A stretch of DNA of 64,000 nt from Ignavibacteriota bacterium (GTDB lineage Bacteria > Bacteroidota > Ignavibacteria > UBA10030): positions 416,001 to 480,000 of the forward strand of contig OY969585.1 of the NCBI GenBank assembly GCA_963701295.1, written 5' to 3'. The notes beneath the pieces were generated by a model that did not search any database, was not told the origin of the DNA, and worked only from the letters and a program-made list of their open reading frames with translations. This document shows, piece after piece, positions 37,390-41,432 of this stretch. The first letter of the stretch is position 1; each line of letters opens with the position of its first letter. The position numbers were made by a program, and so were the translations under genes.

Positions 37390-38493
37390 TTATATGCCCT
37401 CTGTGTTTCTTGGTTTAGCTTTCGATTCGATAACAGCAAGCTGACCGCATGCAGCCTGAATATCCTGACCGGAACTGCTGCGAACCATGACAGTAATATC
37501 GGCTTCGCGCAGTGCGTCAGCAAATACTTCAATACGCGGAGCTGGTGTAGGCTTAAGCGACGCTCCGATGCCAGACAGATGCATAAACGAAATGGAATGG
37601 AACGGAATGAGATTCACTTTGCATGGAATTCGTCTGCTTAATTTGACGAACGCCTTTATATCTGCCGCCGTGTCGTTGAAACCATCGAACAAGATATACT
37701 CAAATGTCGGACGGCTGCGCTTTTTATGATAGTAATAATCCAACGCGTCAATAAGTGTGTCTACAGGAAATTTTTTTGTGATGGGCATGAGCTTTGTGCG
37801 TTTGTCGTTGTCCAGAGAATGAAGCGAGAGTGCAAGCTTCACCGGACGTTCTTCATTGGCAAGCTGGCGGATCCTGTCGGCATAACCGGCTGTAGAAACA
37901 GTGATATGCCGCGCACCGATGTTTAATCCCCGACCATCATTGATAATGTCTATGGATTTCATTACGTTTTCGTAGTTGAGGAGCGGTTCGCCCATTCCCA
38001 TATAAACGAGATTAGTAATACGCTTCGCACTATTTCGTTGTACCTGAATCACTTGATCGATGATTTCCCCAGCAGTTAAATTACGTAAGAAGCCCATCGC
38101 TCCTGTCGCGCAGAACTTACAATCAAGCGGACAACCTACTTGCGTAGAAACACAGAGAGTCAAACGCTTATCTTCTCCAAATATTTTTCTTGTCGAAGGA
38201 ATCAGTACGCTTTCGATTGCTAAACCATCCTCCAAACTGAAGAGGAATTTTGTTGTACCGTCCGTAGACACACTTTGGGCAACTGGTTGGAGATTGGAAA
38301 TTGCAGCGCCATAAGAGAGAGCAGCACGAAACTCTTTGGAAATATCTGTCATCTCATCAAAACTCTCTGCAGCTTTGGCGTAGAGCCAGCTATAAAGTTG
38401 TGCGGCACGAAATTTTTTTTCACCCAGATCCCCGACAAACGCTTGTAGCTCTATTAGGTCGAGCCCTTTCAGATTTTTTTTTTGTCTCTCCAT
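37390..38493 (-). CDS. rlmN: 23S rRNA/tRNA m2A methyltransferase RlmN (radical SAM)
   Basis: CVSTQVGCPLDCKFCATG, MGMGEP, SLH, DIQAACGQL. Confidence 0.97.
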   Translation of the reverse strand: MERQKKNLKGLDLIELQAFVGDLGEKKFRAAQLYSWLYAKAAESFDEMTDISKEFRAALSYGAAISNLQPVAQSVSTDGTTKFLFSLEDGLAIESVLIPSTRKIFGEDKRLTLCVSTQVGCPLDCKFCATGAMGFLRNLTAGEIIDQVIQVQRNSAKRITNLVYMGMGEPLLNYENVMKSIDIINDGRGLNIGARHITVSTAGYADRIRQLANEERPVKLALSLHSLDNDKRTKLMPITKKFPVDTLIDALDYYYHKKRSRPTFEYILFDGFNDTAADIKAFVKLSRRIPCKVNLIPFHSISFMHLSGIGASLKPTPAPRIEVFADALREADITVMVRSSSGQDIQAACGQLAVIESKAKPRNTEGI

Positions 38494-38913
38494 TGTTTAC
38501 AATGTAAGGAAAGATGTTGGCGAGAGCAAGGTCGTGTGATTTCAACACCCATAGGAATTGTGCCGCCTGAATGCCCTCATCTCTGAGAAAGCCTGACGAG
38601 GGGTTTTCCATTTATGTAAGGGAAGGTGAATAACACTCAGGCGAGAGAAAGACGACATTTGACAATCGATCCTTTGAAGTGAGCGATGACAATATAAAGA
38701 ACAGCGATTTGTGTTCTATTCGTGAGTTCGACAATTCTTCGGCCTGGAGCCGACATTATCGGGAGAAGGCGATAATCATCAATACGAAATCTTGTCCCAA
38801 CTAGAAATCCTGACAAAAACCGGTTTTCCGAATCAAAAAAGAAACTAGGATACTCACCTTGTTCCAGTGTGTATTTTGAGTTAGATTAAATCACTCTGGA
38901 ACGAGAATATCTC

Positions 38914-40455
38914 ATGGTTGGCATGAAATCGATTGTCGTACAAAATCAAATTCCTACTCTATTCATCGTGTGTCTTATTTTCATTTCGCTTCCGTTCCTT
39001 TTTGTACGATTTATTCCATCAACCGATTTACCGCAGCATCTTGCACAAATTCGACTTCTCCAGGATGTATTGAAGAATCCGACCCAGCGTGAATACGTAG
39101 TGGGATGGGCGGGTGCGAACACGCTGGTGTACTATCTCCTGGATATGAACTGGATGATATTTCCACCGATCCTTGCTGGAAAAATGATGGTCCTTGAGAT
39201 TGTCATGGCATGGATCGTCGGAATCTTTGCATTGGCACGACGAAAAAATTGTTCACCATTTTCTGCTGCACTTGCCTGCATTTTGGTATTTAATGCAAGT
39301 CTCACTTGGGGGTTCCTTAATTTCCTCATCGGACTTCCTATCTTTATTCTCTGGTTTCTTTTAATTATGGACAGAAAGAAGACGCGGCCAATTGTCACAA
39401 AGATTGTGCTCATAATATCGATCAGCTTTTTGCTATTCTTCGCCCATGCGCTGTGGCTACTGCTCGCTGTTGTGCATTTTTTTGTGGCAACACTATGCCG
39501 GCGCCCCACTCTGAAAGAAATTGGAATTCGCTGCGCAGCTTTAGCTCCCGTCGGCTTTTATAGCGCATTCTGGTTCCCTCGGCTTTCGGCGATACGAGCT
39601 ACCATCGGATTTGACACTGCGGCGCATTGGATCGTCTCACCTCTGGAAAGGATGCATCCTCGCTGGTTATTGGAATCGTTGCTCGGGGGAATACACGGGC
39701 CGACCGAGGCATTGGTTCTGGGAGGAATTGCGGTGTGGATTGGCATGAGTCTCATAACCAATTGGGGAAAACTTCGAACGCTCGTAGAAAAGGAATTTCT
39801 CTTCGTGGGAATACTTCTCACTCTTGTTGTCTTTTGTGCACCGGACAAATATATGAATACAATTTATTTCGCGTCACGGTGGGCTCCGGCTGCGATGATT
39901 TTCTTTCTGCTTGCACTTCCCCTTCCGCAGATGCAGAAATCTGTCCTCGCCTTCTACACAATTTTTCTTCTTGCAATCCTCTCATTGACTACTTGTTGGT
40001 ACTGGTGGCGGTTTGAGAAAACGGAAAACTCTGGATTGAGTGAAAGCTTGATGAGAATTCATGACAACTCCAGAGTGTTGGGACTGGATTTCGTGCAAGA
40101 GAGCGAATTCATCTGCGGTCGTCCCTTCCTGCAGACATTCGCCTATGCACAGGTTCTTCATGGCGGGAAACTGAATTTTTCATTTGCCGAGCATTATAGC
40201 GAACTCGTATCATTTGCGCAGATCAAAAGAGTGCGAATATGGACACCCGGATTAGAGTGGTACCCTCAACGTGTAAGCCCTAGCGATATTAATTGCTTTG
40301 ATTATGCGCTCATCAACGGCCTTGATAATGCGCACAATTTCTTTGCTTCATACTCCATGCTCATGCCCCTTACGACGACTGGTCGGTGGAGGCTGTACCA
40401 GTGTGTGAGAGACACACTCGCCCTACAGCATGGCAGTCAAACGATTGCACGTTGA
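38914..40455 (+). CDS. Polytopic membrane protein, possibly GT-C-like glycosyltransferase
   Basis: About 11-12 hydrophobic segments; DLPQH motif in the first loop; WGFLNF; soluble C-terminal domain. Confidence 0.6.
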   Translation: MVGMKSIVVQNQIPTLFIVCLIFISLPFLFVRFIPSTDLPQHLAQIRLLQDVLKNPTQREYVVGWAGANTLVYYLLDMNWMIFPPILAGKMMVLEIVMAWIVGIFALARRKNCSPFSAALACILVFNASLTWGFLNFLIGLPIFILWFLLIMDRKKTRPIVTKIVLIISISFLLFFAHALWLLLAVVHFFVATLCRRPTLKEIGIRCAALAPVGFYSAFWFPRLSAIRATIGFDTAAHWIVSPLERMHPRWLLESLLGGIHGPTEALVLGGIAVWIGMSLITNWGKLRTLVEKEFLFVGILLTLVVFCAPDKYMNTIYFASRWAPAAMIFFLLALPLPQMQKSVLAFYTIFLLAILSLTTCWYWWRFEKTENSGLSESLMRIHDNSRVLGLDFVQESEFICGRPFLQTFAYAQVLHGGKLNFSFAEHYSELVSFAQIKRVRIWTPGLEWYPQRVSPSDINCFDYALINGLDNAHNFFASYSMLMPLTTTGRWRLYQCVRDTLALQHGSQTIAR

Positions 40456-40504: not shown

Positions 40505-40575
40505 AAAGAAAACCCCAAGCAACTTTCGTCACTTGGGGTTTTAATTTAAATCTGGCATCGACCCACTCTCCCATG
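40505..40575 (-). repeat. Duplicate of the 5S rRNA 3' end plus terminator (att-like direct repeat, copy 2)
   Basis: 68/71 identical to 41271-41341. Confidence 0.9.
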
Positions 40576-40678
40576 TGGAGAGTTATGTGCGACATCCCGG
40601 GGTTGTTTGGCGAAACAGCTATCATCATCAATTGATTAACTGAATAATTCTTTATGATTGTATAAACATAGTTCTAAA

Positions 40679-41123
40679 CTATTCCTCAATATTTTTCAAT
40701 CTGTAATTTTCGACATGGAATGGTCTTTTTTCATTTTGTTTCTCAACGAGAAAATGATATCCGCGACCAGGAAAAATATTAGCTTTATAGGAATGATAGT
40801 CTTGCTTTGGAATATAAACTGGACAACCAGTATTAAGATATTCACAAAGACTTCGATATGGAATAAAATAGCATCGTTGCAATTCTCCATTACCAATAAG
40901 TAAGAGCGCGTCGGTATATTTATGTATTGTTTGAACATCACAAGGAGTAAAACCAAAAAAGTATCTATCTCCATTCGAAAGATTTGCATATTTAGTCAAC
41001 ACACGCCTGTCATTTCCAATTTTAACAGCCTTGATGAATCCTCTTTCATGCTCAATTGCTTTTATGGGTATTTTATTATCTAACAAACGTCTGAATAAAA
41101 TTCAGACTCAAATCCGGTCCCAT
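40679..41123 (-). pseudogene. AT-rich hypothetical gene inside the 5S-flanked islet, probably frameshifted near its 5' end
   Basis: GGAG RBS and ATG at 41123 give MGPDLSLNFIQT, which joins the 40679-41086 ORF (LLDNKIPIK...) if one base at 41085-41087 is removed. Confidence 0.6.
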
Positions 41124-41270
41124 GATTTATCTCCAAATTAGTCATATTCATCAGTTTCACATTTCAGTGGATGTATTTCATATATTAGTACACATATTCA
41201 TTGTACAATTTACAAGGGTTTGATAATGAATGAAGTACGATAATCGAAGTACTTGTGGAAAGGCTCACAA

Positions 41271-41310
41271 AAAGAAAACCCCGAGCAACTTTCGTTACTT
41301 GGGGTTTTAA
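41271..41310 (-). terminator. rRNA operon terminator
   Basis: Minus strand AAAACCCCAAGTAAC-GAAA-GTTGCTCGGGGTTTTCTTT hairpin directly after 5S. Confidence 0.85.
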
Positions 41311-41316
41311 TTTAAA

Positions 41317-41432
<116 letters not shown>

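Follow-up and report, generated by a model that had tools for sequence, protein, structure and literature searches.

The slot between the 5S rRNA gene and rlmN in the genome under study appears, on balance, to take in DNA of relatives by homologous recombination, without an integrase encoded on the incoming element, and the att-like repeat found there would be a leftover 5S end. This genome (G000) is a single contig of 3.64 Mb with one 16S, one 23S and one 5S rRNA gene, i.e., a single rRNA operon, so that a second operon for comparison does not exist. The features of the slot within the window, i.e., the whole stretch of 64,000 nucleotides that was analyzed, are collected in Table 1.

Table 1. 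Features of the 5S-rlmN slot, by position in the window.
Feature	Positions	Strand	Remarks
rlmN and leader	37390..38560	-	rlmN 37390-38493; Pfam RlmN_N, Radical_SAM; conserved right anchor of the slot
Gene for a 513-aa hydrophobic protein, likely membrane	38914..40455	+	Second variable gene of the slot
Displaced fresh copy	40505..40575	-	5S positions 92-117 (40550-40575) and terminator 40509-40542
Hairpin insert, decayed, 40 nt	40576..40615	-	At 5S position 91/92; contains GCACATAAC and CTCTCC
Decayed remnant of 5S positions 81-91	40616..40626	-	7/11 match by eye; credible only through the layout of relatives
Damaged cargo gene	40652..41123	-	Intact form 156 aa in relatives; open frame left 40679-41086, 135 aa
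Working repeat copy	41271..41341	-	Last 26 nt of 5S, spacer and terminator hairpin 41271-41315
5S rRNA	41316..41432	-	Rfam RF00001, 102 bits; last gene of the sole rRNA operon

An earlier note on this DNA had described a 71-bp repeat in the same orientation with three substitutions, and this was borne out: 40505-40575 and 41271-41341 are direct copies on the same strand (68/71 nt, i.e., 96%; 766 nt from start to start; blastn E 5e-27 in a search of the 3.64-Mb genome). No third copy was found by blastn in the whole genome and, genome-wide, there was no 5S fragment besides the displaced copy. The 5S end was rightly recognized in the repeat, but its length is 26 nt by the Rfam boundaries and not 25 nt. 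Likewise, the 695 bp enclosed by the copies are AT-rich as claimed (33% GC vs 42% for the genome), but the one gene ascribed to them is a damaged copy of a 156-aa gene. The terminator hairpin of the working copy has a folding z of -4.95. Compared with the working 5S ends of the sister genomes G001 and L134, the working copy of G000 carries two differences and the displaced copy one.

Next to the fresh displaced copy, GCACATAAC had been taken for an attC-like motif followed by a CTCTCC/GGAGAG hairpin. Both are present, but as parts of a 40-nt insert common to relatives. In G003, where the layout is terminator, 5S positions ~79-91, 40-nt hairpin insert and CATGG, the insert at the same 5S position shares 34 of 40 nt with that of G000 (blastn E 5.3e-10), and CATGG directly follows the insert in both genomes. 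The G003 form folds (z -2.8) but the G000 form no longer does (z +0.8); the displaced copy of G000 folds together with its insert (z -3.1). Because the layout of insert and CATGG is common to G003, the G000 copy would extend beyond the 71-nt repeat, to about 40505-40626, and its sequence is old and decayed on the left but fresh on the right. The old part (34/40) meets the fresh part (68/71) exactly at the insert end. In G154, which belongs to another genus and lacks the cargo gene, tandem units break at the same base, i.e., the start of CATGG. The attC site that would follow the gene in an integron cassette is not there; the motif belongs to the shared insert. None of the 55 genome matches to the commonest repeat of G000, which we take to be attC-like from the general form of attC sites, lies near the 5S-rlmN slot. 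These matches fall into about ten clusters, several of them distant from any integrase, and some copies contain a CCCGCC..GGCGGG insert.

A hunt for 5S 3' fragments near rrf, called for by the earlier note, was carried out across the order. The survey comprised 110 5S loci, of which one (G111) was dropped for having too little downstream DNA, leaving 109 loci from 108 genomes. The 5S 3' end of each genome was aligned to its own next 1.5 kb, with a preset pass of a score of at least 34 and above 40 shuffles. Same-strand copies were found within 1.5 kb at 14 of the 109 loci, in four of nine families, counting G000 and bearing in mind that kin are not independent; the reverse-complement control gave 0/109. 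Further copies were recognized by eye in G006, G007, G050, G066, G075, G088, G098, G152, G219 and G260, and an 18-nt match in G027 was set aside as chance. By eye and alignment, copies start at 5S position 1 (G217, G220), ~9-10 (G015, G219), 24 (G144), ~55 (G094), 74-84, 92 (G000, G154), 94 and 102-106. Between the 5S gene and the copies lies anything from no cargo to about 5 kb of it, including SIR2-like and DUF2442 genes; copies are stacked in G094, G136 and G087, and they are usually plugged by short CCCG..CGGG hairpins.

Larger recombinase-bearing elements and empty sites had also been sought among relatives. No intact integrase was found near any copy, but one clean pair was, in another family. 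G260 differs from G088 by a gain of 122 nt at the 5S end, which gives its working 5S a new terminator. After this unit come 94 nt that match the resident 5S end without a difference, and the terminator and downstream DNA of the displaced copy are still those of the resident. G088 lacks only this first unit; farther along, it carries older cargo and an older copy of its own. By eye, the terminators of the working and displaced copies differ in G002, G012, G015, G026, G045, G087, G136, G157, G217 and G260, and are alike in G018, G096 and the first two units of G154. A full second 5S gene in relatives, which would have favored partial deletion of a duplicate, does occur in G217 and G220, with a near-full one in G015, but in none of the closest relatives of G000. 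The two complete genes of G217 lie 4.9 kb apart with several genes between them, one ABC-ATPase-like, and the second has no 23S gene ahead of it and no hairpin. Those of G220 (L186) are 216 bp apart with hairpins at the junction.

Three loci are recorded here for their structure. G094 (L172:69-7800) reads 5S, 5.1 kb of cargo, a hairpin-riddled copy, 2.2 kb of cargo and a clean copy, which runs from 5S position 55 and abuts a stop codon. In G015 (L026:2045-2400), a 5' fragment of rlmN survives in decayed form, and behind it lies a 5S pseudocopy that is nearly full and holds two hairpin inserts. Within the 5S gene of G208 (L187:2375-2521), ~32 nt around helix IV are repeated in tandem, which is either real or an assembly artefact.

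The cargo gene of G000 was found at further loci in G011 (plus two records with the same allele), L133 and L134, always between the 5S terminator and rlmN. It is followed by a badly decayed 5S copy in G011 and L134 and by barely a trace of one in L133; a fresh 5S repeat accompanies the gene in none of the three. The gene and the repeat, proposed earlier to be one unit, are therefore separable, since three other lineages have the gene without the fresh repeat and G154 shows the reverse. In G000, the reading frame is shifted by +1 directly behind the ancestral ATG (41123) and is cut short by a premature stop (40679-40681); the gene is now decaying. The frameshift sits in a perfect 8-bp inverted repeat (41089-41107 in the window) that intact homologues do not have; a template-switch mutation is suggested.

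Six close homologues of the cargo protein were found, five of them of 156 aa. One homologue is 75% identical to it. A wider family search gave 16 proteins, with P0018 and P0019 left out as spurious repeat-type matches; two members are fusion proteins, one with a HARE-HTH domain and the other with DndB. The family had no match in Pfam, NCBIfam or PADLOC, the protein had none among the sequences of solved structures, and its ESM Atlas neighbours are unnamed. A structural model reached a pLDDT of 90 (39 for an earlier model from 7 close sequences), and its top Foldseek matches are all PD-(D/E)XK-class nucleases, albeit weak (E 1.3e-3). We predict a PD-(D/E)XK or restriction-endonuclease-like fold and infer a possible restriction or defence-type DNA-binding role. 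A role as homing endonuclease was considered and rejected: the top fold, I-Ssp6803I, is a weak match (Z 7.7, thus below 8; rmsd 4.5; 125 residues aligned) tied with other nucleases, a clear acidic motif is wanting, and the gene is decaying. Ahead of the conserved KYAN strand, no acidic residue is invariant among 13 sequences.

The ancestry of the slot's content was compared with that of its flank using four-lineage site patterns. In the body of rlmN, G000 groups with L134 at 95 of 111 informative sites, vs only 10 of 39 in the cassette running from the terminator to the gene, for which the tree does not resolve (Fisher p 1e-11, with sites that are not independent). Identity between G000 and L133 is 88% in the cargo gene vs 75% in rlmN; between G000 and L134 it is 86% vs 92%. 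The terminator and cargo cassette thus seems to have moved between lineages, its ancestry being discordant with that of the adjoining rlmN. As the sister L134 has the cargo gene, G000 may have inherited it. Against the sister genomes, rlmN of G000 shows 67-82% identity in its first three 60-nt bins and 87-100% from the fifth bin on, except the last. The rlmN leader and first ~110 coding nt (38380-38560 in the window) look foreign, with the reading frame kept.

The second variable gene of the slot is that of the 513-aa protein: queried with the G000 sequence, it was not found in 14 of 15 congeners, and the homologue in the remaining one, G012, is on another contig. A 44% homologue adjoins rlmN in G016. 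The protein belongs to no Pfam, NCBIfam or PADLOC family. G001, G009 and G010 have neither the cargo gene nor the 513-aa gene and hold other relics in the slot.

Homologous recombination would account for the fresh ends after inserts, the foreign terminators, the variable starts and the discordant ancestry. In such an exchange, the rRNA operon would act as a long homology arm; the second, short arm would come from the donor's older 5S copy, immediately 3' of the hairpin insert in that copy, the insert setting where homology restarts. A crossover there would leave the working 5S, the donor terminator, the cargo, the decayed remnant with its insert, and finally the recipient's intact 5S end and terminator; this predicted product is the layout of G000. 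The same product would arise in a single step if a circle, excised between 5S and its old copy, popped in. In an alternative order of events for G000, the gene would already have been in place and a block from the insert to the rlmN start would have replaced the old relic. Since the terminators of G000 are of one family (3 differences in 71 nt) and the displaced copy shows one difference where the working copy shows two, donor and recipient are not distinguishable.

It counts against this account that its steps are deduced from sequence and are not observed events, and a second arm of 26-71 nt is short for RecA. Furthermore, recombination explains how copies spread and are refreshed but not how each family came by its first duplicate. 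Homology-facilitated illegitimate recombination is a possible maker of a first 5S copy. The hairpin junctions, which are identical in four families, suggest a targeted process of some kind. There is a precedent in the proposal of rRNA genes as recombination anchors in SAR11 HVR2 (PMC2217521, PMC4033161).

A hairpin system can sit upstream of homologous recombination. In its broadest form, a hairpin/GIY-YIG system that also plugs tRNA copies would make disabled 5S duplicates, which would serve throughout the order as integrase-free handles for gene capture; new terminator and cargo units would join next to 5S and older ones would be pushed downstream. We regard this combination as rather improbable. 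Taken as an explanation of the G000 copy, a small GIY-YIG nuclease or REP-type transposase acting in trans would nick or invade 5S, repair would leave a hairpin-plugged duplicate and cargo would come later, which we think unlikely. A close parallel, which does include an enzyme gene, is at a tRNA-Ala gene of G000, where the order is tRNA, terminator, small GIY-YIG gene and hairpin-plugged tRNA copy, and two more small GIY-YIG genes adjoin hairpin-interrupted tRNA 5' copies (C1:3414978, C1:3297553). In the tRNA-Ala copy (G000:C1:2356095-2356545, outside the window), a TCCCG..CGGGA hairpin replaces the anticodon arm and the terminator is duplicated.

At the 5S loci, too, hairpins are associated with copies (12/14 copy-positive vs 23/95 other loci, a contrast inflated by the pattern having been picked after seeing the positives). 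They also occur between the tandem 5S genes of G220, the same insert junction is found in families f1, f5, f7 and f8 while the flanks match each host's 5S, TCCCG..CGGGA occurs 88 times in G000 vs 10-22 in five shuffles, and PMC11708052 offers a precedent in which an element sits in the middle of a duplication. However, GIY-YIG genes were present in only 2 of 207 loci, both more than 3 kb from 5S and at loci not scored copy-positive, and in none of the 207 was one inside a 5S slot. The published SRM pattern matched 0 of the 17 loci tested, and no small GIY-YIG gene flanked by SRM hairpins was found at the locus. Hairpin-free duplicates, i.e., copy B of G094 and the second 5S of G217, imply that duplication can come first and that hairpins may merely collect in neutral DNA.

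Two candidate sources of the inserts were rejected. GCGGGATRAAATCCGG is no high-copy REP, having only 19 matches in 18 of 277 genomes, 7 of the 19 inside 5S copies, and the Y1 transposase of G000 has its own GTAG-type palindromes, which are unlike the inserts. The gene for this RAYT-like transposase (G000:C1:488500-489060) has one GTAG-type palindrome in frame and another downstream.

That a tyrosine integrase targeting 5S rRNA made the pair, leaving a relic or trans-mobilised mini-island, is quite unlikely in our view. An intact RNA gene and a same-orientation 3' fragment do bracket cargo, which is the Islander signature in the accessible part of PMC4383910, displaced copies keep resident terminators and can stack with cargo, and several copies begin near 5S positions 50-55 or 74-78. 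Yet starts range from 1 to 106 and include full duplicates, so that there is no single crossover point, although later deletions could blur a true one. The cargo gene and the fresh repeat do not travel together, and among mapped proviruses rRNA makes up 0.01% of RNA-gene targets, as given in the accessible part of PMC13626063.

The search for recombinases likewise argues against an integrase. A tyrosine recombinase profile built from nine G000 proteins gave 14 matches in that genome, partly by construction, some of which are not tied to a tRNA island; the nearest is 72 kb off at a tRNA-Glu island, in agreement with the earlier claim that no integrase is present. On 119 loci (485 kb), the profile found a single 30-aa scrap; it lies on a separate G094 contig, ~170 bp away from a displaced copy, and may be counted in favor of an integrase relic. 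Fourteen longer stretches yielded that scrap alone, and a further 19 (117 kb) yielded no match. No recombinase was found by Pfam among 20 ORFs near copies, a search that was the only cover for serine recombinases and transposases. Viral contigs gave 0 matches to the G000 5S end; a looser 5S-end pattern gave three, at least two of them with a tRNA-Met-like gene behind the match, which is ordinary where an rRNA operon ends. Thus, of the mini-element proposed earlier, the geometry and the repeated entry of DNA at 5S are real and recur across the order, but an integrase-made, site-specific element bounded by the repeat pair does not fit copies that start at many 5S positions with no intact tyrosine recombinase found near any of them, in G000 or its relatives.

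We are equally doubtful that G000 involved no transfer at all, i.e., that a local tandem 5S duplication was followed by 5' deletion and by conversion of the relic to the sequence of the working 5S end. The full second 5S genes in G217 and G220, the zero-cargo tandem units in G154, G012, G015 and G018, the near-identical terminators of G000 and the presence of the cargo gene in the sister L134 are what such a history would predict. It leaves unexplained, however, why terminators differ between working and displaced copies, the discordant ancestry of the cassette and the foreign rlmN patch, and the G000 insert is of the G003 type, not the L134 type.

It is very improbable that the copy persists because it works as an RNA or as a processing signal, in the manner of E. 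coli rrA/rrB/rrF, which also end in the 5S 3' end between two terminators (accessible part of PMC8144298): the G000 copy does fold with its insert, but it lies 0.7 kb beyond a strong terminator, and copies are lost or degraded in the sisters G001, G009 and G010 and very different among relatives. An assembly artefact, which a repeat adjoining an rRNA operon might raise, is hardly credible given three substitutions between the copies, a single-contig genome, the same gene in the same place in G011, L133 and L134, and the same insert/CATGG junction in G003 and G154.

Should recombination at the 5S end be the correct reading, the end of a single-copy rRNA operon would be a recurring entry point for small foreign genes in the order, and an att-like repeat alone would be no proof of site-specific integration. 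The G000 instance is a decaying relic; the interest lies in the order-wide pattern and in the origin of hairpin-plugged copies. Slots of the 5S type go unseen because island finders, Islander among them, require both an integrase and a tRNA or tmRNA target, and rRNA genes are almost never recorded as integration targets (see the figure from PMC13626063 above). Our literature search found no paper on bacterial islands in 5S or on such copies; the supplements of TIGER/Islander and ProBord may list 5S targets.

Among known systems, the slot resembles the tRNA/tmRNA islands of Islander, as described in the accessible part of PMC4383910, in its restored RNA gene, cargo, displaced 3' fragment and tandem stacking. 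It differs from them in having an rRNA target, no integrase aboard, no fixed crossover, cargo of 0-5 kb and hairpin-plugged copies. In the E. coli rrA/rrB/rrF RNAs, too, the 5S 3' end is copied behind the 5S gene, with a terminator on either side; according to the accessible part of PMC8144298, however, they are conserved, transcribed small RNAs with a copy of 18-19 nt, whereas the copies in this order vary in length, decay and bracket protein genes. Short GC-rich hairpins are also a feature of the Ssn GIY-YIG nucleases with their NTS/SRM hairpins (PMC11893778, whose main text contains neither the word 'tRNA' nor the word 'rRNA') and of REP/RAYT repeats, and G000 likewise has small GIY-YIG genes and a Y1 transposase gene. 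Unlike in Ssn, the 5S inserts miss the SRM pattern (0/17) and the 5S slot has no nuclease gene.

SAR11 HVR2 and replacement flexible genomic islands (PMC2217521, PMC4033161) share with the 5S slot variable content next to a single rRNA operon, exchange by homologous recombination where the flanks are conserved, and a patch of divergence in the border gene. As in those islands, slot content between conserved flanks differs among relatives, the border gene has a divergence peak and the content has a discordant ancestry. Among the slots compared, in which cargo is mixed and each species is represented by one genome, no alternative clusters with a similar, surface-related function were seen. The 5S slot is further unlike these islands in being tiny and partly additive, in leaving duplicated 5S ends, in an exchange that appears to be cross-species and in cargo without a common function. 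By analogy, it would nonetheless work most like an rRNA-anchored replacement island.
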